DNA from: a virus
Reading direction: 5' to 3' (one strand)
IMG/VR virus record: IMGVR_UViG_3300032182_000187
Span: 8,497-72,496 of that record
Length of the DNA stretch: 64,000 bases
Shown here: positions 1-12,974 of the stretch, piece after piece
Position numbering within the stretch: the stretch's first letter is position 1
Layout: every line of letters begins with the position of its first letter
Program-made: the position numbers and the translations under genes
The notes under the pieces: model-generated
Databases searched by the model: none
What the model was told of the DNA's origin: nothing
What the model saw: the letters and a program-made list of their open reading frames with translations, nothing else

Positions 1-188
1 TCATCATTCAACTTCTCGTCAGGAGAAATCCAGTCACCTTTACTAAGATGCCAATGAGTCGTGACATCTGCATGAGGACAAGTGACCCATTTAATAGTTG
101 TATCTGGACCATCATATACTTCAAATTCCTGTCCAGGATCTACAACCTCGTTGATGATACCTCTAAAGTCAAGTAAAACTCTTTTCAT
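1..188 (-). CDS. Hypothetical tail-associated protein, 3' end runs off the window (not in ORF track)
   Basis: ATG at 188 opens MKRVLLDFRGIINEVVDPGQEFEVYDGPDTTIKWVTCP..., open to base 1; late-promoter-like GATAAATA at 212-219 upstream. Confidence 0.75.
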   Translation of the reverse strand, partial: MKRVLLDFRGIINEVVDPGQEFEVYDGPDTTIKWVTCPHADVTTHWHLSKGDWISPDEKLND

Positions 189-217
189 GATAGTAAACGT
201 TATTCCTGTATTATTTA

Positions 218-979
218 TCAGATGTATTCATAGATGACCACGATGCCATCTTTACCAGTTGATCCATGCCCATTTCTTCTATAACCACCAGCACCTCCTG
301 CGCCAGGAGCAGCATTATCTTTGTAGTTATACGCAAAGTTACCGCCATTTGGATGACCACAAGGACCACCACCGCCGAAGAAACTTGCTCCAGCATTACC
401 CACACCATAATAGATGTGTCCTGATCCCCCGCCACCAATAATATTTAGGTCTCCGCCAGAACCAGAACCTCCAATACCGCCACAATGTCTATCGGTTTGA
501 TTTCCGCCATTTCCTCCTGTAGCAGACAAAAGACTACCAAATGAAGTAGTTCCTCCTGCACCTGCAGCAGCAGAATATGTAGCATAATCAACGCTACCAA
601 GTCCAATAGTAACGCTAACAGAAGATCCAACTTGTGCTGGTGTCAATAGTCTTTCCGCATATCCACCAGCACCACCAGATTCTGAATATCCAGATCCAGC
701 ACCACCACCACCAGTGAGCATGACAAAGATCCTTGTTACATCTGATGGAATATTATATGTTCCACTTTCGTTAAAAACAACAATATTGTCTGGACCTGCA
801 ACGTTATATGAAACAGCACTGCCATCTGTATACAATGCCTTACTAGGATTTAATGCAGGGTCTGGTGGCATAGTGTCTTCATTAATAGTCATACCAGCCA
901 CTGATAGACTATAACCATCTGGAATATGAATTACCCCAGTTTGAGACGATACAATTTCGTTTACTTTAATTGTTGACAT
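218..979 (-). CDS. Glycine-rich fibre/adhesin-like virion protein, paralogue 3
   Basis: 253 aa; N-terminal MSTIKVNEI motif; GGGG/GAGG blocks and FGSxLSATGG motif; collinear with the two upstream paralogues. Confidence 0.8.
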   Translation of the reverse strand: MSTIKVNEIVSSQTGVIHIPDGYSLSVAGMTINEDTMPPDPALNPSKALYTDGSAVSYNVAGPDNIVVFNESGTYNIPSDVTRIFVMLTGGGGAGSGYSESGGAGGYAERLLTPAQVGSSVSVTIGLGSVDYATYSAAAGAGGTTSFGSLLSATGGNGGNQTDRHCGGIGGSGSGGDLNIIGGGGSGHIYYGVGNAGASFFGGGGPCGHPNGGNFAYNYKDNAAPGAGGAGGYRRNGHGSTGKDGIVVIYEYI

Positions 980-980
980 T

Positions 981-1739
981 TTATTTAAATTCGTATACTA
1001 CAACGAGACCACCTTTACCATATCCACCCTGGATTGAAGTGTGATAACCAGGAGATCCACCAGCACCAAATGCAGCACTAGCAGTATTATCTAGGGCATA
1101 ATCACCTGCGTTTGGATATCCAGTAGGACCAGATCCTCCAAAAAAAGAATTGCCGCCTGTAGGACCAGCATAATACTGGTGACCTGCCCCACCACCACCA
1201 TATAGATTCATATCACCACCAGAACCTACACCACCTACACCACCACAGTGTCTATGATCTTGATTGCCTCCTTGACCACCAGTAGCAGAAAGATAACTTC
1301 CGAAAGAAGTAGTTCCTCCGTTAGATGCAGCATCCGAGTATTGTGTAGAATCTGTATTCCCGTTTCCGATTGTTACGGTTACTGAAGATATTCCAGTAAT
1401 ATCAATAAGTCTTTCTGCATATCCACCAGCACCTCCGCCCTCACCAACTCCAGACGCAGATCCTCCGCCACCAACAAGACGAACTAAAATTTTATTTACG
1501 CCTGAATCTGGGGTGTATGTGCCACTACTAGTAAAAGTTACCATTCTGTGTGGACCTACTGCGGTCCACGAAGCAACTCCACCAACACATTTCAAAAATT
1601 TTCCTGCCTGTCCAGAAGTCGATGGGGGCATTGCTGTGCCATCTAAAATCTTTCCATCCAGACTCAAGTTATGACTAGATGGAATTTCGATTGTGGTTCC
1701 AGAAGAAGATTTAATTTCGTTAATTCTTAAAATTGACAT
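981..1739 (-). CDS. Glycine-rich fibre/adhesin-like virion protein, paralogue 2
   Basis: 252 aa; same architecture (TFTSSGTYTP...VRLVGGGG...GLVVVYEF). Confidence 0.8.
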   Translation of the reverse strand: MSILRINEIKSSSGTTIEIPSSHNLSLDGKILDGTAMPPSTSGQAGKFLKCVGGVASWTAVGPHRMVTFTSSGTYTPDSGVNKILVRLVGGGGSASGVGEGGGAGGYAERLIDITGISSVTVTIGNGNTDSTQYSDAASNGGTTSFGSYLSATGGQGGNQDHRHCGGVGGVGSGGDMNLYGGGGAGHQYYAGPTGGNSFFGGSGPTGYPNAGDYALDNTASAAFGAGGSPGYHTSIQGGYGKGGLVVVYEFK

Positions 1740-2498
1740 TTACATATACTCCATGATTACAACAATACCATTTGATCCTTTTGCTCCACCGTGGGATCTT
1801 GCCCATCCACTAGCACCACCGCATCCAGGAGCAGCATTTTCTTCATTATTAATAGGATATCTTCCTCCATTTGGGTGTCCACCTGGACCACCACCTCCGA
1901 AATAACTTCCACCCCCTTTACTATTATATCGACCGTGACCTGCACCGCCGCCTCCATAGATAGAAAGCATTCCACCAGATCCTACTCCACCTGGACCTCC
2001 AGAGTGTCTAGCAGCTTGATTAGCACCACTTCCTCCACCAGCAGTCATAAAAGAACCGAAAGAAGTGGTTCCTCCAGTTCCAGCTGCTCCTGCATAAGTA
2101 GTACCACTACCTCCAGTACCTACAGTAACTGCGACTGTATTAATATTATTATCTTCTAGGTTAATAAAACCTTCACAGTATCCAGCAGCACCACCAGTTT
2201 CTGAATAACTAGTTCCACCACCGCCACCACCAACAAGTCTAACATAAACAATTTTGGTTCCTGCACTAGGAACGTATTGTCCACTTTGAGTAAAAACAAT
2301 AATATTACCAGCACCATAATCAGAATAAACGAAACCAGTTCCATCTGAATAAACTAGTTTACCATCTTGACCAGAAGTTGACGGCAAAACTTTATTTTTA
2401 TCCAGAGCTCTTGAACCAATTTGCAACGAATGTCCTGCAGGAATCAGGACAGTCGTGCCAGTGGATGCTTGGATTTTGTTTACGAATAGTGTACTCAT
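1740..2498 (-). CDS. Glycine-rich fibre/adhesin-like virion protein, paralogue 1
   Basis: 252 aa; same architecture; its stop directly abuts the next start codon. Confidence 0.8.
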   Translation of the reverse strand: MSTLFVNKIQASTGTTVLIPAGHSLQIGSRALDKNKVLPSTSGQDGKLVYSDGTGFVYSDYGAGNIIVFTQSGQYVPSAGTKIVYVRLVGGGGGGTSYSETGGAAGYCEGFINLEDNNINTVAVTVGTGGSGTTYAGAAGTGGTTSFGSFMTAGGGSGANQAARHSGGPGGVGSGGMLSIYGGGGAGHGRYNSKGGGSYFGGGGPGGHPNGGRYPINNEENAAPGCGGASGWARSHGGAKGSNGIVVIMEYM

Positions 2499-2504
2499 AG
2501 TTCT

Positions 2505-5500
2505 TTACACAACAGACCAGGCAGAACCTGCCGAGATAGTAATTGTTACGTTATTATTTATAGTCAATGGTCCTGCACTTACAGCATTGGTGTTTGATGG
2601 AATAGTGACATCTTCTGAGATAATAGTTCTGTTAGTTTTAAAGATGCCATAACTATCAATATACTGACGATCTCCATTAACATAGAAGACTTCAGTATTT
2701 GCACCACTGGTAAAGGAAGCACCATTGATACCGAAACTTCCAGAAACCTGTAAACCGTAGTCTGGGTTGCCAGTAAATCCATTTGCAGTAGGATCTGCAT
2801 TGATCCAAACTTTAGATGCTCTAAAGATATCAAGTTCATTTTGTGCTTCAGTCCAACGTGAAGTAACGAACTCAGCGTTGTTCTGGAATAGTTGACCATT
2901 GAAGTTAACATCACCTTGAATGTTCAGTTGATAATTTCTTAGTGTGTTATCTTCAGGATCTGTTCCACTGAATGCAGTTGTATTGATTGCAACTCTTCTA
3001 GTGTTACCCTTGATTGCGATAGCAGGAGTTGTGCCCCAGTCAACGCCACCATTGGAATCAGAAGGTGTGATATCAAAGACATCATCTGCAAGTAACTGAT
3101 TACCAATTCTGAAGTTTCTGAATCCAGTGGATCCTTTAAATTCGATTGGAGCACCATTGTTGTTAGATGCATCATTAATAAGAAGTTTAGTGGAGGTATA
3201 AATATTGCCTGCCACATGTAGTTTATAATCCGTTGCGGTAGTTCCAGTCGTTCCTAAGAACAGGGTGCCAGTGCTATTGAGTTGCATTCTAACTGCACCC
3301 GCATTGGAACCAGATCCAGCAGAAGAGTTAACTGTAGGAACAGATGTTCCATCAAACGAAACTGTGAAATAACCAACATTACTATCGTCTGCACCAATTG
3401 CCCAGAACTGATCGTCGGTTCTGTCGCTAAATCCAATCTGTGGAGATCCAGCAGTATAACCCAACTGAATTCTTCCATGGTTTGAAGTCTGCTCTTCAAA
3501 GATTGCCCAGACATCGTTACCTTCAATAGATCCATCATTAGGAGTGATAATGTGCAAGAGAGACTGTGGATTGTTATGTCCAATACCAACACGTCTGTCC
3601 GTAGAATCAACATACAGAACGTCAGTTGCAACAGAAAGATCGGTAGCGATTGTGACATTGCTTAGGAAGTCTGCTCTACCAGAAATGCTCAGTGCCTGGG
3701 TAGTTGCTAATACACCAGTAATGGTCAAAGGACCAGACATAGTATCACCAGACTTCAGTACGTTCAGCGAAGCAGAACCTACCAGTTCAGCACCAGCATC
3801 TAGAGTGATAGTGCCAGCACCGAATCCACCGTTAGCATCACGAATAACACCTGTGTTTGCTACGCTTCCAGTATTGAAAGTAATGTTACCAGTGTTCCAG
3901 ACTGTGTTGCCGTTGATGGAGAAACCATCAGCGTTGACAACCTGTACGTCTAACGTACCGCTGGAGTCTGTGCTATTACCACCAGTTGCGATAATTGCAG
4001 TGTTATAGTTTGCTGCTGCTTGTTCAGAAGATCTGAAGTAGATACCTGGGGAAGAAGGAATGCCATCCTTTCTACCAAGTCTGAGGTTTGCAGTACCACC
4101 ATCACTCTCAAGTCTTGCAACTTGGAAAGTGCCTGTGGAGTCAAGGGTGAAATCTTGGAAAGCAACACGGTTGTTTGCTTCACCAATAGTCTCAGCACCA
4201 TCGAAAGTACCAGACTGTAGTACACCGTAGATGATTGTGAAATCGTTGAAGTTATCAGTTTCGTCGTTAGTTACGATCTGAGTAATCTGAATTTCACCAA
4301 CACTCTGTGCAAGGTTATTGTAGAGGTTAATTGGGTTGCCAGGTAAGAATGGCGAAGAAGTTAGAATTGCACCAGAGATGTAGATTCTATATCTTGCGTT
4401 ACCAGAGATCGAAAGGATATCTAAACTGTCCTGAATCGACTTAGGAGTGAAGAAGTCTGGCAGTCTATTGTCGGACAACTCACCGAAGTTCATGTTGTAT
4501 GCGTTCTGATACCAGATACCTTGACGGTTGTCCAGTTTGTCAGCATCAAGGTCAGTACCAGGACCATCGTTGAGTGAGGTCCAGACCTTACCCCAAGAAC
4601 CCCAGTCATCCAGAGTGGTTCCAGAACCACGGAGCCACATGTTGTCATTATCAGTAAATGCTAACTGTCTAGCACCACCACCAGTAGCATCAAATCCAGA
4701 ACCGAAGTTTCTGATAGTCATTACTAGGTGTCTTTGACCACCGTCGAGGAGACCATCAGCAGTGTTGTTTCTAGTATCAGCAATAATACCAGAAGAGAAC
4801 AGGTTAGGAGATGGAGAAGACGTTGGGTTAGTTACACCAGTAACGAGTCTGAGAGTGTTACCAGACTGACCCGAGATGCTGATGTTGTATGTACCAGACA
4901 TACGATCTGTTGGTACAGTACCTGCGTTTAAGTTAGAAGCATCTAGGTAGTAAGCACCCTGCACACCGTCTAGAAGGTCAGCATCAAGACCACTATCAGC
5001 ACCAGTCTTCAGTGTGATAGAACCGTTTCCAGATTCTCCAATCTCGAACTGAGACTTTCTAAATCTCGAAACACCGATTGTGCCATATTCATCAGCAGAA
5101 ATTGTCTGGTTAGTAGCACGAAGAACGTCAACCGAAACGTTAGCAAACTGCTTATTAACTGTACTAATCTTCGCCTGGAGAACGAGACCAACACCAGATC
5201 CAATCTCTGCAGGCAGAGAGGTGATGTTAAAGTCTGCATTGTAGTTAAGACCACCATCAGTTACGGTGAGTTCAGTAACCTCTCCACCAGAAACAATGAC
5301 GTTTGCTTTGAGTCCTGTACCAGTACCACCACTTAGAGTCTGGTCAAAGTATTGACCATCAGTGAAACTAGAACCACCCTCAGCAACAACAATGTTGTCT
5401 ACGAATGTACCTTGAGTGTAAGAAGACTCAAATGTAATTGGAGAAGCGCCACGCTCAAATTCAATAATAGTTCCTGCGGGAATTGTTGCAATCAGTGGGT

Positions 5501-8500
5501 TGGAGATAGATACAGTTGTCAAACCGCCAGAGGTAAGAACACCATCAATGTTAGTGTTTTCCTGAATACCAACGACATTTGCTACTACTTCGTGACCAAG
5601 TAGAGTGTCGGAATTGGTAGTAAAGATTAACTGCTGACCACCAATACTTGCATCACTGTATAGTCTAGCAAAGTATCTTGTCTCAGCACCCTTAATAGAC
5701 TGAACTGCCAGAGCATAAGACTGGTCACCACGTAAGAATGTGAAGGAGTTTGCAGCGTTGGAGTTAAGTGCCAAACGAGCAGTCTCAATAACACCCGAAG
5801 TAATGTCAGATGCTGCAATCTGGTTAGAGGATAGAGATACCCAGTTATTGCTATTGAAAGAAGAGGTGTTAACAACTCTTGTGACATTAACTACTGTTGG
5901 TGGAAGATCACTAGAGTTGATGGTGTCTGCCTCAGTTAACTTGAGTCTGTTTACAATGTCACCATAAAGTCTGTTTTCAATTAGAGCACTACCAGTTGCT
6001 TGTGTACCAGAACCAGATGGTGCAGAGAAGGTAACTGTTGGTTGTACAGTGTATCCCTTACCACCAATAAGACCATTAAACTCTTGGATTTCAACAACAA
6101 CGACCTGACCGTTAGCAATTTCTGCTGTAGCAGATGCTTGGATGTTGCCAGCAGTTGGTTGACCACCAGTAATTGTAATAACAGGTGGGGAAGTGTATCC
6201 AGAACCAGGATCTGTGATGATGATCTGGAATACAACACCAGTTCTGTATTCAGTTGCTTGAATCTGACCGTTAGACTGACTACCAGTAAAGATATCACCT
6301 AGGGTGAATGATAGGGTAGGATCAACGGGGAAGGATACAAACAGACTATCTAAGTCATTGTTAAGAATGAACGATGTCGATGTATCCTGTTGGATTGCGA
6401 TGTCACCTGCAAGTGCGCCTTCAATGGAGGTTCTTGCTGTAGCATCGGGAACAGTGAATACACTGAAAGGACGTAGAGCAGGGATCTGGTCAACAGAAAT
6501 CTTACCAGAGTCGGTAAGTTCGACCAGTGCTCTAGGAACAGCGTTTGTAGAATATGGTTTGTTGATGTAAGGACCAAGGTTATTTGTAATGTAGTCCTTA
6601 ACTGCTTTCTGAGTAGGTAGTTTGGAGTCAGTGGAGTTAGCGCCACCCAGTGTGTTGGATGCGTCGAAACCAGTAACAACAACGTCGCCACCCTTCAGTT
6701 TCAAGAATTCAACTTCCGAGATCGTAACCGTACCAGTGAAGGTGATGTTACCAGTTCTGTTCTCGATTCTTGCGAAAACACCAACCTTGAAGTCACCAAG
6801 TTCGTCAGTACCAGAGACGTATACACGACCATAGCGTTCAGAAACTTGCTCGTTTGCTTCAACTTTAACACCACCGTTTTCAGGCAAGGAGTTGTAGTTA
6901 GTACCAGAACCTGCGAATTCCCAAGTGTGGGAGGAGGAGTTAACGATAGAAGGTCTGTGTAGTCTGATTGTCTCACCATTCAGACTGGTTGTGGATACTG
7001 CTTGCTGGGTAGCAATATTCTTAAATTCAGCACCGCCACCAGAACCAGAGTCAATTGTAAGTTGAGCAGAGAAAGGAGGACCAACTGTTACAGCATCAAC
7101 TGCATCAATGAAGTATTCAATCTCAGCACTTACGTTTTCAAAACCATCAATCTTGACGATATAGTGCTCAAGAGGTTCTCTTCCAAGACCATCAACGGTA
7201 AAGATTGTTCTACCAGTTGGAGTAGCAGATACGTTCGTGATAGTACCAACGTCAAAGATGTATGCCTCTTCTCTAAATCCAATAGCACGTAGAGCGAAGA
7301 TACCGAAGTTGGTAGCAGAGTTAGTGATAGATGCATAACCACCAGACTCAGAAAGAACACCATCAGCACAGAAGATAACGAAGACCGAAACCAACTGAGT
7401 GTAACCATCGTTGATAACCTTATAACCAATACCACCGAAGGAAACAATCGTGAATGCCGCAGCAACCATCGACTTACCCTGGTTGGGGAAAGTTGCGGAA
7501 CCGTCAAGTTCTAGACCTGCGAAAGGACAGTTAGGTTGTTTGACTCTAGAACCGTCAATTAGAGCACCGCCACCACCTAGGAAGGAGATGATTGAAGAGT
7601 TCTGGGTATATGGAGATGCTTCAATGATTGGGAAATCATCGAAATCAGAACGTGGTGTAAGAACAGTTCCGTTAGCATCGTAGATAGTTACGTCTGGATA
7701 TGTGTAAAGATCAACCGTATCTAGAAGTGTGCCATAGTTCTTAACTGTACCACCAGGAGCAATATCTCCACGAAGAATATCGTTGAGCAGTGTGAAGGAG
7801 GTTGTAATGGCAGACTCAATACCTGCACAGTATGGAGTTCCTAGTTGATCAACTAGAATGCTGCTATCTGTGAACAGAGGAATTGGTGAATGAACTGGAG
7901 TATATACTGCACCCGCACCACCTAAGGTCGCCCAGTTCCTCATAGCGAGGATACAAAGATCTCTTACCTGCTCGAAAGCATAGATGGTTTCATCTCTCTG
8001 TGCTTCGGGAATACCAGTTAGAATAGTTCCAGAATAATATTCCTCAGCGTTCGTAACAATAGCGGCATTACCACCGAGAATAATATCTCTAATCAATGCA
8101 GTGATAATATAGTTAATATCTCTTCTGCATTTTCTTTGATTAATATCATTCAGAAGAAGGGATGGATACTGCGCTTCAGTCTTGCCTAGTGCTTCATCCG
8201 CAATGAAGTCTCTGTTTCTAGCAATCAGGTAACCTGCATCCAACTTAGTACCAGATGCGTCATTAGTTAGAACATCGACAAACAGATAGGACAGAACATT
8301 GATTGCTGACTTAACGTTTGCACAATGCTCGACTCCAGGTTGAGTTAGATCTTCTAGAATCGTTGGGTCGATGTACTTGGGTAGAGAAGTATACTGTGCG
8401 GTATAAACGGGATCCGTTGGAAGACCTGTGCCAGTTCTCCACTTACGCATTGCAAAGATTGCTAGTTCTCTAGCATACTCAATTGCACGTACAGTTTGAA

Positions 8501-11500
8501 TAATTTCGTTATCGATGTAGGTAGCAATTTGAGTGCCTTGAATGTACTTCTTAGCAGCGTCAATAACATTGTAGTTGCTTCCATACTCAAGGTCACGGAT
8601 GACAGCATTAAGGAAGTGTCTAATGTCTCTACGACACTTGTTGTCACTAACTGGAATATTGAAACTTGGATATGTCTTCTGTGTAACTACGTTATCAACA
8701 GTACACTCAAGAAGAATGTCAGCAAGTTGTACGATACTATCATTTGCTAGTCCTGGGATAGCACTATCAGTTGTGATAGTAGCAGCACCAGTTACAGTAT
8801 TGTCATAAACAAAGCTGGTGATATTATAAGTAGATCCACCAAATGTTACTGTTCCGCCACTTACGTAGTCATGAACAAATCTCGATGGTCCGAGGAATAG
8901 TTTGAATTCGTCGCCACCAACAGACAAAGCATTAGTTGCTGCTCTTACAAATGTGTGAGCAGACTGTGGTAAATGTTTGACTGCTTCTGCAGTAGCACTC
9001 ACAAATGTGTGAGTAGATTGTGGTTCAAACTTAATTGCTCCAGGTTGAGCACTTACGAAGGTGTGCGTAGAACCCGATGCAGTGCCTGCGTCACCGACGT
9101 TGATAGTAAATGTGCCAGTTTGCCTTCTAATAGCGTCTGTAGCGATGCTGACGAGGGTGTGAGCGCCTGTGTAATCAGAACCACCAATGTTGATTCTAAA
9201 TCCATCCTGAGTTACATTGTCAATCTCAAAGTAACGGTTGCTAGCATAGTCGTAGTTAGTTCTTGGGTAAGACTTGTTAACCGTATTGCCATCTAGAACA
9301 CAGGAATAGGTGAGGGCATTATCCTCGACCATAATGTAATCACCATCAGCAAATCCATGACTTGCTAAGGTGAACTGGATAGTTCCTGCAGCAGCGTCAT
9401 AAACTGCATCTGTAGGAGTGTGAGATGTGAAACCAACGTTAGTGATTTCAATGGACTTACCAGAGTAAGGATCTTGTCCTGCACGAGGATATGTGTGGAC
9501 TTGGGTATTGCCGTCTTGATCGCAAGTGAATGCGAAAGAATTGTCCTCAAGAACAACATGCTTACCAACTTGTAAACCATGCTGCCCTACAGTGACAGTC
9601 ATGTCACCAGTTGAGGCATTGTATGCAACGTCTGTTGGTTGGAAATATTTGTTAGCGGGAGAAGCACCAACATTAACTGTGATGGTGTTCTCGGAAATCG
9701 CTGTGATGGGGATAGAACGCTGTGAGAAGAGATCGTGTCCAGGTCTTGGATAGGTCTTGGCAGCGTCATTGCCATCCATGGTGCAGGTAAAGGTCAACGA
9801 GTTGTCATCGATGACAATACCTTCTCCTACATCTAGTTGGTGAGTTCCAATGGTAAGAACTAAGTTACCTGTTGCAGGATCATAAGTTGCATTAGTTGGA
9901 GTGTACAGTTGGTTAGGACCAGAAGCACCAACATTAAGTGTAAACGTATTAGTGGTTACTGATTCAATAGGAATTGCTTTGCCAGTAGCATAGTGATGAG
10001 ATTGTGGTGCAGTGTGCTCGGTATTGTTACCGTCCATTGCACAAGTGAAGACAATGCTGTCCTCTTCAATCTTTACACCATCACCAACAGATAACCCGTG
10101 GTTTGCAACAGTGAATGTAGAAAGACCAGTCGCAGGATCATAAGTTACATCAGTAGGAGTGAACTGCTGTGTTGGTGTACCATCTACATCATATACAGCA
10201 AAGTATTCTTTCTTAAATTCATCATTGACTCTACCAACAACTTCATCTGCAATAAAGTCGATATTGTTTCTAATTTGTAGAGAAGCATCTTGGAATCTTC
10301 TTGCTACAGGTGTCGCCATATCAAATTTGTTTGGCGAGTTCAGCAAGGAAAGAGTTACGCCCTTAGATGCCGAAGAAACCTTCGCTAGGTTGCCAGGTTC
10401 AAAATTGGAGTCTGTGATGACCGAAGTCTTTTTGGGAATAACAAAACGTCTCGAACGACCGTCAGCATCTTCGAGAACTTTGTAAATTCTCTGCTTACCA
10501 TTCAAGAATGATAAGTCAGGACCAGAAGTAGGCAGACCTTCAATTAGAATTTCTTGACCTTCTTTTAGTTCGTGGACGTTCTGTCTACCAATCAGTGCGT
10601 TGGTGTAGAAGACGATACCACCAAGATCCTCTGGACCAGCGCCGTCCCATCCATATTGGAATCCACCAGTAGCAACTTCGTCTGTGCCCTGTAGAGAGAA
10701 GTCAATTCTGGAAATAGGATACTCTACTTCTCCTGGTTCATTGGTGAATACAACTTCACCCTCTGCTCTAATGGACTGAATGTCAGTAGAAACGAACTCA
10801 TATTCTGCATCCAGATAATCCAGTGCGTTTGCTCTTGCAGATACAAATGTATGTGGATAGTTGCCACCAGAGATAACAGCGTTTGCTAGAGCACTATCAA
10901 ATGCATGTTCATACTGATCGTCAGGTCCAGATGCACCTACGTTAATTGTAATTGTTGTAGAAGTTACTTCTAGAATTTCTACCGCAGTGTCGTATGCTGG
11001 GTCAGTTGTTCTTGGATAGAAGTGGACACTGGAATAACCATCTTGAGAGCAGGTAAAACCAAGAGACTCTGTTCTTAACTTAATAGAAGTTCCTACAGTT
11101 AGCGTATGAGTGCCAATTGTTAGAACAGCAACACCAGATGCAGGGTCATAGGTAGCATAAGATACCTGATGATTGACAAGTTGAGAGTCGCCAACATCAA
11201 GTTCAAATGTATTAGTTGTTGCTGCAGAAATAGTTAGGAACTGGTTTGCAATTGGGTCGGAAGATCTTGGATAGTATTTGACATTGGTGTTTCCATCCAT
11301 GTCACATGTGAATCCAAGAGATTCGATGTTAATACGAATTTTATCACCATTAGCAAATCCATGGTTGGGAACCGTAAACTCGGAGATACCAGTTTGTGGA
11401 TCGTAGGTTACGTTTGTTGGTGTATATGGAGTGGTAATGAAGTATTCAAATGTTTCACCAGAGATGAATGAACCACTGAGAATTTCAATGTTAGCAGTAC

Positions 11501-12974
11501 CTGAGATGTAAGCTTGTACACCTGTAACTGTGTCAAATACTACTTCATTGACTAATGCAGTTGCACCAGTGTTAACACCTCTTAGAGATAGACCAGCGGT
11601 AAGCTGGTTTAAACCAGTGTTTGTCTGGAAGGTAACTCTCTCACGATTTGGACCAAAGATCTGGTGACCAACTGGGAAACTTAATCCAAAGTCTCCATTA
11701 GCAGATGCATCAACTTCAATTCTTTGCTTGTCATCGAAGACCATAGCAAAGTCCCACGTTGCAACAGAGTCGCCGTTGGAATCAATTTGGTCACGATAGG
11801 TAACACCGATGACATAGTTCTTGTCACCAAATTTGAAAATATGCTTTCTTGGGTTTGCTGGGCGGATGATAACCAGACGCAGGTTGTCACCAACAACCGA
11901 TGCATCGGGAGGAATGGAAATTGGGTTATCTTCTAGATAATCACCGCCAGCAACGATAATTGTTTCTTTGACGCCAGGTGTTTTCCATGCTTCCTGACAT
12001 GCTTTTTTAATTGTTCTTACAGGAGCAACAGCAGAACGACCATCGTTGTCGTCACTACCAATAGTCTGCGAAACGTAGATACGACCACCAACGTCGTTCT
12101 GTGCTAGGTTCAGAACATATTCTGTAGTTGCAATCTTGTCAGACTTATCACCCAGGAGAGGTGTGATAGATCTTGGATAGAGACCTGAGTCACCAGTCTC
12201 TTCGTAGTAAGGTTGAGTATCGTCAACAATACGGAAACCAATATGCTTCAGTTGTGCGGTTCCGTTCGCCTCAATACCATCAATGTGTGTAGGAGCAGAG
12301 GTTCCAGTAGTACCAGTTTCAATAACCTGATATACATTACCACCAAAATATCTAAAAGTATTCTTCTGAACAATAACGTTAGGTGCCCAGAGAGTACCAC
12401 TGTTGTTAATATAAGTTTTTAAGTTTGGTGCTCTAAAGTTTGCGTCTGGAGTAACGAAGTTATCGATATCCAGGTTTAGAATTCTCGCCGTGTCTGAAAT
12501 GATCGACGTAGATGTTCTAATAGCACCGTTAATGTCAAGTTCAAAGTCAACAGTATCTAGGAATGCGATACCAACAGCACCAGTACCATTACCACCACTA
12601 ATTTGTACGACTGGAGCAGTTTCGTATCCATCACCAGGATCATCAACAATAATCGCACTAACTTGACCATTGAAAATTGCCGCCGATGCCAATGCTTGAC
12701 GACCACCCTCCAAAGTTGGAGCACTAAGTTCAACTGTAGGGACTAAGGTGTACCCACTACCACCCTGTCCATCGGGAATATCAATTCTTTCAACTCTTTT
12801 ACCAGTTCTATTAATACCTACCCTAGGTAGACCTGTCTCAGCGTCTAACTGTGCTCTAAAGATCTCCCTCTCTGTTGCCCCAGTTCCAGCACGAATTACA
12901 TAAGTTTGGTCTGCGATAACCGATGGGTTGACCGCCCTTAAAATTTCCTTATCAGAATTAAACTGAAAACTCAT
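2505..12974 (-). CDS. Giant tail-fibre-like virion structural protein with beta-domain repeats and two phycobiliprotein-like domains
   Basis: 3489 aa; G-x-GY repeats, GLDADLLDG/DLDADKLD fibre motifs, YDPxTG...FTCxxDG repeats, two KCRRDI motifs, C-terminal SAGPLTI...WSVV. Confidence 0.85.
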   Translation of the reverse strand: MSFQFNSDKEILRAVNPSVIADQTYVIRAGTGATEREIFRAQLDAETGLPRVGINRTGKRVERIDIPDGQGGSGYTLVPTVELSAPTLEGGRQALASAAIFNGQVSAIIVDDPGDGYETAPVVQISGGNGTGAVGIAFLDTVDFELDINGAIRTSTSIISDTARILNLDIDNFVTPDANFRAPNLKTYINNSGTLWAPNVIVQKNTFRYFGGNVYQVIETGTTGTSAPTHIDGIEANGTAQLKHIGFRIVDDTQPYYEETGDSGLYPRSITPLLGDKSDKIATTEYVLNLAQNDVGGRIYVSQTIGSDDNDGRSAVAPVRTIKKACQEAWKTPGVKETIIVAGGDYLEDNPISIPPDASVVGDNLRLVIIRPANPRKHIFKFGDKNYVIGVTYRDQIDSNGDSVATWDFAMVFDDKQRIEVDASANGDFGLSFPVGHQIFGPNRERVTFQTNTGLNQLTAGLSLRGVNTGATALVNEVVFDTVTGVQAYISGTANIEILSGSFISGETFEYFITTPYTPTNVTYDPQTGISEFTVPNHGFANGDKIRINIESLGFTCDMDGNTNVKYYPRSSDPIANQFLTISAATTNTFELDVGDSQLVNHQVSYATYDPASGVAVLTIGTHTLTVGTSIKLRTESLGFTCSQDGYSSVHFYPRTTDPAYDTAVEILEVTSTTITINVGASGPDDQYEHAFDSALANAVISGGNYPHTFVSARANALDYLDAEYEFVSTDIQSIRAEGEVVFTNEPGEVEYPISRIDFSLQGTDEVATGGFQYGWDGAGPEDLGGIVFYTNALIGRQNVHELKEGQEILIEGLPTSGPDLSFLNGKQRIYKVLEDADGRSRRFVIPKKTSVITDSNFEPGNLAKVSSASKGVTLSLLNSPNKFDMATPVARRFQDASLQIRNNIDFIADEVVGRVNDEFKKEYFAVYDVDGTPTQQFTPTDVTYDPATGLSTFTVANHGLSVGDGVKIEEDSIVFTCAMDGNNTEHTAPQSHHYATGKAIPIESVTTNTFTLNVGASGPNQLYTPTNATYDPATGNLVLTIGTHQLDVGEGIVIDDNSLTFTCTMDGNDAAKTYPRPGHDLFSQRSIPITAISENTITVNVGASPANKYFQPTDVAYNASTGDMTVTVGQHGLQVGKHVVLEDNSFAFTCDQDGNTQVHTYPRAGQDPYSGKSIEITNVGFTSHTPTDAVYDAAAGTIQFTLASHGFADGDYIMVEDNALTYSCVLDGNTVNKSYPRTNYDYASNRYFEIDNVTQDGFRINIGGSDYTGAHTLVSIATDAIRRQTGTFTINVGDAGTASGSTHTFVSAQPGAIKFEPQSTHTFVSATAEAVKHLPQSAHTFVRAATNALSVGGDEFKLFLGPSRFVHDYVSGGTVTFGGSTYNITSFVYDNTVTGAATITTDSAIPGLANDSIVQLADILLECTVDNVVTQKTYPSFNIPVSDNKCRRDIRHFLNAVIRDLEYGSNYNVIDAAKKYIQGTQIATYIDNEIIQTVRAIEYARELAIFAMRKWRTGTGLPTDPVYTAQYTSLPKYIDPTILEDLTQPGVEHCANVKSAINVLSYLFVDVLTNDASGTKLDAGYLIARNRDFIADEALGKTEAQYPSLLLNDINQRKCRRDINYIITALIRDIILGGNAAIVTNAEEYYSGTILTGIPEAQRDETIYAFEQVRDLCILAMRNWATLGGAGAVYTPVHSPIPLFTDSSILVDQLGTPYCAGIESAITTSFTLLNDILRGDIAPGGTVKNYGTLLDTVDLYTYPDVTIYDANGTVLTPRSDFDDFPIIEASPYTQNSSIISFLGGGGALIDGSRVKQPNCPFAGLELDGSATFPNQGKSMVAAAFTIVSFGGIGYKVINDGYTQLVSVFVIFCADGVLSESGGYASITNSATNFGIFALRAIGFREEAYIFDVGTITNVSATPTGRTIFTVDGLGREPLEHYIVKIDGFENVSAEIEYFIDAVDAVTVGPPFSAQLTIDSGSGGGAEFKNIATQQAVSTTSLNGETIRLHRPSIVNSSSHTWEFAGSGTNYNSLPENGGVKVEANEQVSERYGRVYVSGTDELGDFKVGVFARIENRTGNITFTGTVTISEVEFLKLKGGDVVVTGFDASNTLGGANSTDSKLPTQKAVKDYITNNLGPYINKPYSTNAVPRALVELTDSGKISVDQIPALRPFSVFTVPDATARTSIEGALAGDIAIQQDTSTSFILNNDLDSLFVSFPVDPTLSFTLGDIFTGSQSNGQIQATEYRTGVVFQIIITDPGSGYTSPPVITITGGQPTAGNIQASATAEIANGQVVVVEIQEFNGLIGGKGYTVQPTVTFSAPSGSGTQATGSALIENRLYGDIVNRLKLTEADTINSSDLPPTVVNVTRVVNTSSFNSNNWVSLSSNQIAASDITSGVIETARLALNSNAANSFTFLRGDQSYALAVQSIKGAETRYFARLYSDASIGGQQLIFTTNSDTLLGHEVVANVVGIQENTNIDGVLTSGGLTTVSISNPLIATIPAGTIIEFERGASPITFESSYTQGTFVDNIVVAEGGSSFTDGQYFDQTLSGGTGTGLKANVIVSGGEVTELTVTDGGLNYNADFNITSLPAEIGSGVGLVLQAKISTVNKQFANVSVDVLRATNQTISADEYGTIGVSRFRKSQFEIGESGNGSITLKTGADSGLDADLLDGVQGAYYLDASNLNAGTVPTDRMSGTYNISISGQSGNTLRLVTGVTNPTSSPSPNLFSSGIIADTRNNTADGLLDGGQRHLVMTIRNFGSGFDATGGGARQLAFTDNDNMWLRGSGTTLDDWGSWGKVWTSLNDGPGTDLDADKLDNRQGIWYQNAYNMNFGELSDNRLPDFFTPKSIQDSLDILSISGNARYRIYISGAILTSSPFLPGNPINLYNNLAQSVGEIQITQIVTNDETDNFNDFTIIYGVLQSGTFDGAETIGEANNRVAFQDFTLDSTGTFQVARLESDGGTANLRLGRKDGIPSSPGIYFRSSEQAAANYNTAIIATGGNSTDSSGTLDVQVVNADGFSINGNTVWNTGNITFNTGSVANTGVIRDANGGFGAGTITLDAGAELVGSASLNVLKSGDTMSGPLTITGVLATTQALSISGRADFLSNVTIATDLSVATDVLYVDSTDRRVGIGHNNPQSLLHIITPNDGSIEGNDVWAIFEEQTSNHGRIQLGYTAGSPQIGFSDRTDDQFWAIGADDSNVGYFTVSFDGTSVPTVNSSAGSGSNAGAVRMQLNSTGTLFLGTTGTTATDYKLHVAGNIYTSTKLLINDASNNNGAPIEFKGSTGFRNFRIGNQLLADDVFDITPSDSNGGVDWGTTPAIAIKGNTRRVAINTTAFSGTDPEDNTLRNYQLNIQGDVNFNGQLFQNNAEFVTSRWTEAQNELDIFRASKVWINADPTANGFTGNPDYGLQVSGSFGINGASFTSGANTEVFYVNGDRQYIDSYGIFKTNRTIISEDVTIPSNTNAVSAGPLTINNNVTITISAGSAWSVV

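Follow-up and report, generated by a model that had tools for sequence, protein, structure and literature searches.

The 64,000-nucleotide stretch of viral DNA analysed here (positions 8,497 to 72,496 of the IMG/VR record IMGVR_UViG_3300032182_000187; hereafter, the window) carries on its minus strand, at 2505..12974, a gene for a giant fibre or structural protein of 3489 amino acids, P0001, which was delineated from the list of open reading frames, its translation and a match to the family phrog_5342. Judging from structure prediction and from the order of repeat elements in P0001 and its homologues, residues 936-1352 of this protein most probably form four homologous beta-barrels of the E1-FCCH type (D1 to D4), each of about 100 residues and each placed in a loop of the one before. 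The region under study covers window positions 8920-11430 (2511 bases) and encodes residues ~515-1351 of P0001.

Opener and closer elements of P0001

The region contains six opener repeats of ~84-85 residues, which follow a 2+4 layout and can be aligned over about 84 columns (residues 516-598 and 601-683 in block 1; 937-1019, 1023-1105, 1110-1183 and 1184-1266 in block 2, as delimited by the repeat alignment). The elements of the repeat were designated a (YD..TG...HG), b (GD.V.I...FTC..DG), c (YPR...I.I..V), d (TFT.NVG) and e (HTFVSA..NA), the last of these being the closer strand. Six closers occur in the same 2+4 order, each set standing after its set of openers: HAFDSA (residue 690) and HTFVSA (708) in block 1, and HTLVSI (1272), HTFVSA (1304), HTFVSA (1322) and HTFVRA (1340) in block 2. 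The fifth repeat (residues 1110-1183) is devoid of the last ~10 columns, which make up the TFTxNVG strand, and a TFTINVG strand is located at residues 1287-1293, between the first and the second closers of block 2. A first-pass annotation of this DNA, made from the letters alone, had described six clear repeats, four of which open one after another and are followed in a row by HTLVSIA, HTFVSAQ, HTFVSAT and HTFVRAA; it had also noted that the TFTINVG strand missing from repeat 3 of this four-repeat block returns after repeat 4 closes, and that an earlier pair opens twice and closes twice. All of these elements were recovered in their places.

The pattern of openers and closers is beyond chance. 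A weight matrix of the closer (16 columns) found only these six sites in the whole of P0001 at a threshold of at least 6 bits, and at a threshold of at least 10 bits it found 1126 sites in 121 homologous proteins (the query and the best 120 of 995 matches, compared as sequences only) versus 1 in shuffled copies. Hidden Markov models (HMMs) of the elements a, b, c and e gave 0 matches at 4 bits or more on reversed sequences, and in all six frames of the window they matched P0001 only, with 6 a, 6 b, 6 c and 6 e elements extending over 8925-11426. When the elements are parsed as a stack, depths of 1-4 are obtained for block 2 and of 1-2 for block 1. At the DNA level, the repeats detected within window 8880-11450 showed only 60-84% identity over 19-45 bases, giving no indication of recent duplication.

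Predicted structure of the arm and its host domains

The alignment used for modelling of the four-repeat block (residues 930-1365; model numbering is the P0001 residue minus 929) was drawn from 52 distinct four-repeat blocks of the same spacing, found at 80 IMG/VR loci. Four blocks running on into a further opener and three near-duplicates were left out, and 44 blocks together with that of the window (45 sequences) were used. AlphaFold2 predicted this segment with a mean pLDDT (predicted local distance difference test) of 91.8 and a pTM (predicted template modelling score) of 0.84, and all five models reached a pLDDT of at least 90. Both this model and the larger one described below are single-chain predictions.

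When the model was compared with 48,161 PDB representatives, all 50 matches listed were of single-domain size (62-95 aligned residues). As many as 32 of them, with 62-86 aligned residues, cover model positions 89/94..405/407, that is, D2 together with the third closer; 13 cover 1/6..424/434 (D1 with the fourth closer) and 4 cover 253/255..356/357, which corresponds to a continuous D4. Hence, 45 of the 50 single-domain matches combine an opener with a closer lying 230-330 residues downstream in the model. A barrel of ~77 residues that extends from model position 91 to 405 must be built of two distant pieces. In the predicted structure, these ranges correspond to nested pairing, and neither to a separate sheet of HTFV strands nor to first-in-first-out pairing. 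The suggestion of the first-pass annotation that each domain is inserted in a loop of the previous one is thus supported by the split match ranges of the model, in which the HTFV strands do not make a separate unit and instead complete the D1-D3 barrels.

The predicted parts of the arm, all encoded on the minus strand, can be listed in the order of the chain. The opening part of D1 (residues 936-1022; window 9909..10169) and that of D2 (residues 1023-1109; 9648..9908) were assigned from the alignment, the model, the HMMs and the 13 and 32 structural matches, respectively. They are followed by the opening part of D3 without its NVG strand (residues 1110-1183; 9426..9647), assigned from the alignment and from a long strand leading into D4. 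The innermost barrel, D4, appears to be continuous and ends with the closer HTLVSI (residues 1184-1285; 9120..9425; four structural matches and a viral E1_FCCH cluster as its look-alike). The return part of D3, with the late TFTINVG strand and the closer HTFVSA (residues 1286-1316; 9027..9119), is indicated by a second long strand and by a match to 9lc0_I at 222..435 of the larger model. The closers of D2 (residues 1317-1334, HTFVSA and a short strand; 8973..9026) and D1 (residues 1335-1352, HTFVRA and a short strand; 8919..8972) are placed by the closer matrix, the model and the structure search. According to DSSP, the two long strands, which are of unusual length, lie at model positions 245-256, where D3 passes into D4, and 353-363, where D4 returns to the late NVG strand. 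In addition, short strands are found ahead of the openers (7-9, 93-95, 180-182) and behind the closers (385-387, 403-405, 421-423).

On its way out, the chain would thus pass the opening part of each of D1, D2 and D3 and then the whole of D4; on the way back, D3 would gain its NVG and closing strands, after which D2 and finally D1 would be closed. Adjoining barrels would be linked by two antiparallel segments of the chain, and both ends of the arm would lie at its base. This out-and-back course, which had been proposed in the first-pass annotation as well, agrees with the split ranges predicted for D1-D3 and the continuous range of D4.

The single barrels of the model are predicted to have an FCCH-like barrel fold. 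Their best matches were the FCCH domain of UBA1 (9mc4_A; Z 8.1, root-mean-square deviation (rmsd) 2.5 over 77 residues) and 4p22_B (Z 8.0), along with the inserted barrel of the phi92 endosialidase (4hiz_A; Z 7.8, rmsd 2.0 over 78 residues) and a third FCCH match, 2v31 (Z 6.8); the Z values for FCCH are moderate. The FAD-binding barrels of ferredoxin-reductase-type proteins and domain 2 of EF-Tu ranked next. In the ESM Atlas, the look-alike of D4 is a viral cluster, 73% of whose members contain PF16190 (E1_FCCH). The same family was detected, weakly, in three homologues, namely P0107 (31.8 bits, above the gathering cut-off of 29.5 bits), P0119 (29.1 bits) and P0041 (28.5 bits). Pfam searches of P0001 itself returned no family for the whole protein at E 0.1 or for D4 alone at E 1; for the four-repeat block at E 1 nothing reached the cut-off and PF16190 was not matched. 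When PDB sequences were searched with a profile of the four-block alignment, only an iota-carbonic anhydrase was retrieved (E 0.0037 over 44 residues), which was judged to be a chance match. A Foldseek search of the PDB with the whole four-block model yielded only arrays of FN3-type domains (template modelling (TM) score 0.09-0.14, rmsd 18-42 Å), which are useless for topology, and a Foldseek search of BFVD yielded only pieces of other giant cyanophage proteins (best TMq 0.64), with no named fold among them.

Fibres are usually trimers, P0001 matches tail-fibre families and the models cover single chains only, all of which would suit an oligomer in which the returning closers complete the barrels of a neighbouring chain. 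Such an exchange between chains seems unlikely. The monomer model is confident and its assignments are compact (pTM 0.84), the closers are spaced only about 12 residues apart, and the short strand after each closer matches a short strand before an opener, as suits a return along the same arm. Furthermore, both the innermost barrel and the single-barrel relatives are continuous units of about 100 residues. The arrangement preferred here, a single chain nested upon itself, appears to be repeated on a smaller scale in block 1. There, the opening part of an outer barrel (residues 516-598, elements a-d; 11181..11429, minus strand; repeat alignment and element HMMs) would be followed by a continuous inner barrel ending with HAFDSA (residues 601-703; 10866..11174, minus strand; alignment, closer matrix, HMMs and a stack parse of depth 2) and by the closing strand of the outer barrel (residues 704-720, HTFVSA; 10815..10865, minus strand; closer matrix, HMMs and stack parse). 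By its elements, the segment of residues 516-720 is a two-level copy of the design of block 2.

The surroundings of the arm were predicted in a context model of residues 885-1576 (692 residues; numbering is the residue minus 884), for which 17 orthologues and partial rows were aligned and which reached a pLDDT of 87.5 and a pTM of 0.68. Among the 50 matches listed for it in the structure search, D2 (135..450) and D1 (50..469) were obtained again, and D3, completed by the late NVG strand and by closer 2, was newly added (222..435; 9lc0_I, Z 6.4). Ranks 1-7 were all taken by phycobilisome proteins, aligned at 1/6..686/690 of the model; these include phycoerythrin 5aqd_M (Z 15.5, rmsd 2.8, 150 of 184 residues aligned, model range 1..686), ApcE 4xxi_A (Z 13.2) and allophycocyanin 8or7_A (Z 13.0). 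The helical parts at the two ends of the context model are accordingly predicted to constitute one domain of phycobiliprotein fold (pLDDT 55-90), interrupted by about 520 inserted residues, and the match to 5aqd_M, with its 150 residues distributed over 1..686, is in agreement with the first-pass placement of the four-repeat block inside a phycobiliprotein-like copy 1. The N-terminal helices of this host domain (residues 889-918; 10221..10310, minus strand) correspond to DSSP helices 5-19 and 21-34 and to the start of the matches at 1..686, and its C-terminal helices (residues 1444-1569, starting with KCRRD; 8268..8645, minus strand) to DSSP helices 560-685. The part after the arm (residues 1444-1569) is 35% identical (E 1e-23) to a second copy further downstream; this copy is continuous, and in it only a few residues separate the two helices between which the arm is placed in copy 1. 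A search for PF00502 in P0001 at E 0.1 gave no match; the homologue P0058 matches this family with 36.6 bits (cut-off 22.2), and precomputed matches exist in 10 of the 120 homologues, these being the best 120 of 995.

Between the arm and the helices, a further beta domain, D0, is predicted, with its first strand ahead of the arm (model 37-47; DSSP 40-47) and its bulk behind it (470-552). Four matches at 37/39..536/556, one of them to a glycosidase and the others to baseplate and tail-tip chains of siphophages, are weak (Z 6.4-7.2). The putative first strand (residues 924-931; 10182..10205, minus strand) was placed by DSSP and by the four single-domain matches starting at 37-39, and the main part (residues 1353-1436; 8667..8918, minus strand) by DSSP strands at 470-551 and these weak matches. 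Most likely, D0 is inserted between the second and third helices of the phycobiliprotein-fold domain, and the model then most likely has six levels of nesting, from the phycobiliprotein-fold domain through D0, D1, D2 and D3 to D4.

The second phycobiliprotein-fold domain occupies residues about 1575-1850 (window about 7400-8250). The motif K-C-R-R-D starts the third helix in both copies; it resembles the C-x-R-D bilin-attachment motif of phycobiliproteins. Two further conserved stretches, at residues 286-430 (window about 11680-12120) and 1851-2080 (window 6735-7424), look like the start and the end of one beta-helix-type domain. In 77 homologues the distance between them ranges from 1259 to 4794 residues, and in some proteins of 4,300-5,100 residues they lie about 20-100 residues from both ends. 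All that lies between them, both arms included, may be a single giant insertion, and the nesting would then gain a seventh level.

Element order and cassettes in homologues

The 121 proteins contain from 4 to 30 openers each, and the numbers of openers and closers are strongly correlated (r 0.92), being equal in 67 of the proteins. When blocks away from the protein ends are counted, the numbers agree in 148 of 212, and four-opener blocks have four closers in 84 of 93 cases. Opener and closer counts do, therefore, co-vary among homologues, as the first-pass annotation had required of its nested arrangement.

The order of the elements a, b, c and e was then compared with grammars, the nested one of which allows a whole domain at any junction of another. 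Element d, which is too short for reliable detection, was ignored, and strings of fewer than 4 tokens (8 of 77 distinct ones) were dropped, giving 69 distinct block strings with 2650 tokens. The minimum number of edits was 1064 for serial domains and 262 for nested ones, falling to 204 when domains starting with e (circular permutation) were also allowed; shuffled strings required 1166. Perfect parses were obtained for 1, 10 and 11 of the 69 strings under the serial, nested and nested-with-permutation grammars, respectively, and for 3, 110 and 112 of 194 blocks when strings are counted by occurrence. Recurrent patterns such as a-abce-bc are nested by their order alone. One block, in P0025 (residues 1003-2981), can be parsed without error into 19 branched domains, up to nine deep.

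Five of the six openers of P0001 end in their own NVG strand and look complete to the eye, and the Foldseek search of the PDB gave only FN3 arrays of the beads-on-a-string type, at TM scores of about 0.1. It could thus be proposed that the repeats are ordinary serial domains, complete without the HTFV strands, and that the latter form a small separate sheet or a linker region. This appears very improbable, given that 45 of the 50 structural matches require a closer 230-330 residues downstream, that openers and closers track one another in number and that serial order costs 1064 edits against 262 for nesting. Moreover, in continuous single barrels the closer comes directly after the NVG strand.

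Among 500 domains from blocks that parsed without error, all 500 contained both a Cys in b and a His in e, and 468 contained a His in a. Co-variation of these residues, intended as a means of deciding between nested and first-in-first-out pairing, gave no information, as they are near-invariant. An invariant pair of Cys and His is, to our knowledge, no described feature of FCCH domains, and it might speculatively be regarded as a clasp or a metal site.

Differences between close homologues indicate how the arms may change. P0018 and P0019 are collinear through the four-repeat block except for one stretch of 421 residues, extra in P0018, that separates the C-x-L-x-G motif of the innermost barrel from its YPR motif. 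By our reading, further barrels are contained in this insert, and some of these are circularly permuted. Within residues 1990-2430 of P0018, some barrels seem to have a closer-like H-x-Y-V-G-G first, followed by a-b-c-d. The cassette has collinear counterparts of about 50% identity at other positions in other proteins. An origin of the P0018 cassette by local duplication found no support, as its best non-orthologous matches are these collinear cassettes. Since P0018 and P0019 differ by such a unit and collinear cassettes occur elsewhere, the arms can be taken to become longer or shorter as whole balanced cassettes are gained or lost. Of the earlier suggestion that arm length changes by nested duplication, the change in length is thus borne out in the form of such cassettes, whereas duplication of a barrel into itself is at most a possibility. 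The DNA of the region contains no recent repeats. The four-barrel block has also been multiplied as a whole unit: in P0002-P0004, proteins of 4,764-5,931 residues, the conserved block is present five or six times in tandem.

Several observations weigh against the nested arrangement and must be borne in mind. Closers are fewer than openers in 51 of the 121 proteins and more numerous in 3; only 10 of the 69 distinct strings are parsed perfectly as nested; and by sequence, plain strings (abc abc abc abc eeee) fit nested and first-in-first-out pairing alike. On the structural side, both models are predicted monomers, strand pairing was deduced indirectly, by DSSP and by where the aligned ranges start and stop, and the Z scores of the barrels (5-8) fall in a range that the structure-search tool terms common. 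One of the 50 matches of the four-block model (53..405) corresponds to no single domain, and the barrel matches of the context model to 4hiz_A (51..522) and 4p22_B (51..525) end within D0 and not at closer 4. The deficit of closers is tentatively attributed here to divergent closers missed by detection, because it correlates with lower closer scores (r -0.60).

The ambiguity of the plain strings also touches upon the pairing itself. The four closers are alike, the alignment comprised only 45 sequences, and simple block strings are compatible with both orders, so that the parts might be right and the pairing wrong, with the closers completing barrels in a non-nested order and AlphaFold misregistering near-identical repeats. 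Such an error appears highly unlikely: two independent models gave the same assignments, each closer position shows a flavour of its own that is conserved from phage to phage (HTFVR, for example, at the last position), and linkers of ~12 residues are too short for barrels to be skipped. The a-abce-bc patterns and the cassette of P0018, besides, are nested by sequence alone.

If the barrels are nested as predicted, the arm may be a stiff side projection of a virion fibre, as the double connection between barrels would make it stiffer than beads on a string. Folding would probably start with the innermost barrel and proceed outward while the return strands emerge. As the arm would enter and leave at a single point, balanced cassettes could be added or lost at the loops without harm to the host fold, and the phage might thereby vary how far the arm reaches and what its tip is like, presumably with a view to touching the host surface. 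A more far-reaching reading, put forward tentatively and rather doubtful as a whole, is that self-nesting is inherited as a rule by which marine cyanophages build their virion proteins. On this account branched, tree-shaped arms would be far deeper than any published, balanced cassettes would be swapped between loops of different proteins to change tip contact and hence host range, and a Cys/His clasp, perhaps a metal site, would lock the late closing strand.

Genomic setting and relation to known proteins

The family phrog_5342, annotated as tail fiber protein, matches P0001 along its length (E 0, 4916 bits), and the genes around it have matches in families of baseplate wedge, virion structural and fibre-assembly proteins. 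The 2511-base region shares 95.6% DNA identity with Synechococcus phage Sf-FR1, where the annotation is structural protein. In addition, 324 phage records match the four-repeat block in a tblastn search, all of them Synechococcus or Prochlorococcus phages or records named Cyanophage or marine virus. Accordingly, P0001 is taken to be a giant virion protein of a T4-like marine cyanophage.

Domain-in-domain insertion is usually only one level deep. The closest parallel to the phage arm is offered by Si3, which is inserted in the trigger loop of the cyanobacterial RNA polymerase beta' subunit (RpoC2). In both cases, by prediction for the phage, copies of one small beta domain are inserted mutually, some domains are assembled from distant parts of the chain, and the elongated arm enters and leaves its host at one loop. 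In the crystal structure from Thermosynechococcus, Si3 comprises eight sandwich-barrel hybrid motifs (SBHMs), four of which include structural elements supplied by remote regions, and is 150 Å long (PMC10895346). A 2026 survey presents the Prochlorococcus RNA polymerase, a six-level recursive insertion, as its example of the most complex nesting (PMC13114784). In the phage, however, the host of the arm is a fibre or structural protein, encoded in a cluster of baseplate and fibre genes, and not a polymerase trigger loop, the order is very regular (four open, four close) with 4 to 30 openers across relatives, and the best matches of the barrel are E1-FCCH, EF-Tu domain 2 and ferredoxin-reductase-type barrels. 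No RNA polymerase or lipoyl/biotinyl chain was present among the 50 matches listed in either structure search. The phage arm would thus work like Si3 without being a member of the Si3 system; judged by search matches, the fold looks different. Two features of recursive same-fold insertion are present in the predictions: the domains are discontinuous in both models, and the inserted domain is homologous to its host over several levels.

Other comparisons are more distant. FCCH domains are described in PMC13576161 as outward-facing decorations of siphophage tail tubes with six-stranded Greek-key barrels. Known FCCH examples differ from the barrels of P0001 in being single domains, fused or inserted once, and P0001 has no Pfam match at E 0.1. 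From phycobiliproteins, the corresponding domain of P0001 differs in that it is split by the arm and is part of a virion protein. In the tail sheath protein gp18 of T4, domains are nested in one another, yet these are few and of different folds, unlike the same-fold barrels of the phage arm. The chain of the T4 fibre tip protein gp37 runs to the tip and back, and the tip is an intertwined trimer and not a row of barrels. A literature search, whose coverage did not extend to subscription journals, found no paper on nested barrels in phage virion proteins. A nested same-fold barrel arm in a virion protein is apparently unpublished; the principle is a rare one, known otherwise from cyanobacterial RNA polymerase.

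If the prediction is correct, an apparently different fold, in a protein of the virus particle, follows the rule of Si3 with near-perfect regularity, and the variation in copy number among relatives provides a natural series of 1 to 9 or more levels. Such a series could serve as a test system for how a chain folds when each domain awaits all the inner ones, for the effect of doubly tethered barrels on stiffness and for the movement of balanced cassettes between loops. It would also mean that there is more than a plain succession of repeats to the giant, unannotated "structural proteins" encoded by abundant cyanophages of the ocean, and that the tips of their arms are candidate sites of host contact.

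The giant gene is flanked by other virion genes on the minus strand. Upstream, within window 13530-38518, three more very large virion genes (1275, 2694 and 3634 residues) and a gp6-like baseplate wedge gene are located; the element HMMs, applied to six frames of the window, found no barrel elements in any of the four. Immediately downstream of the giant gene, at window 218-2498, three tandem paralogous genes encode proteins of 252-253 residues each, all of which match phrog_863 (tail fiber assembly) and the C-terminal parts of tail fibre families.

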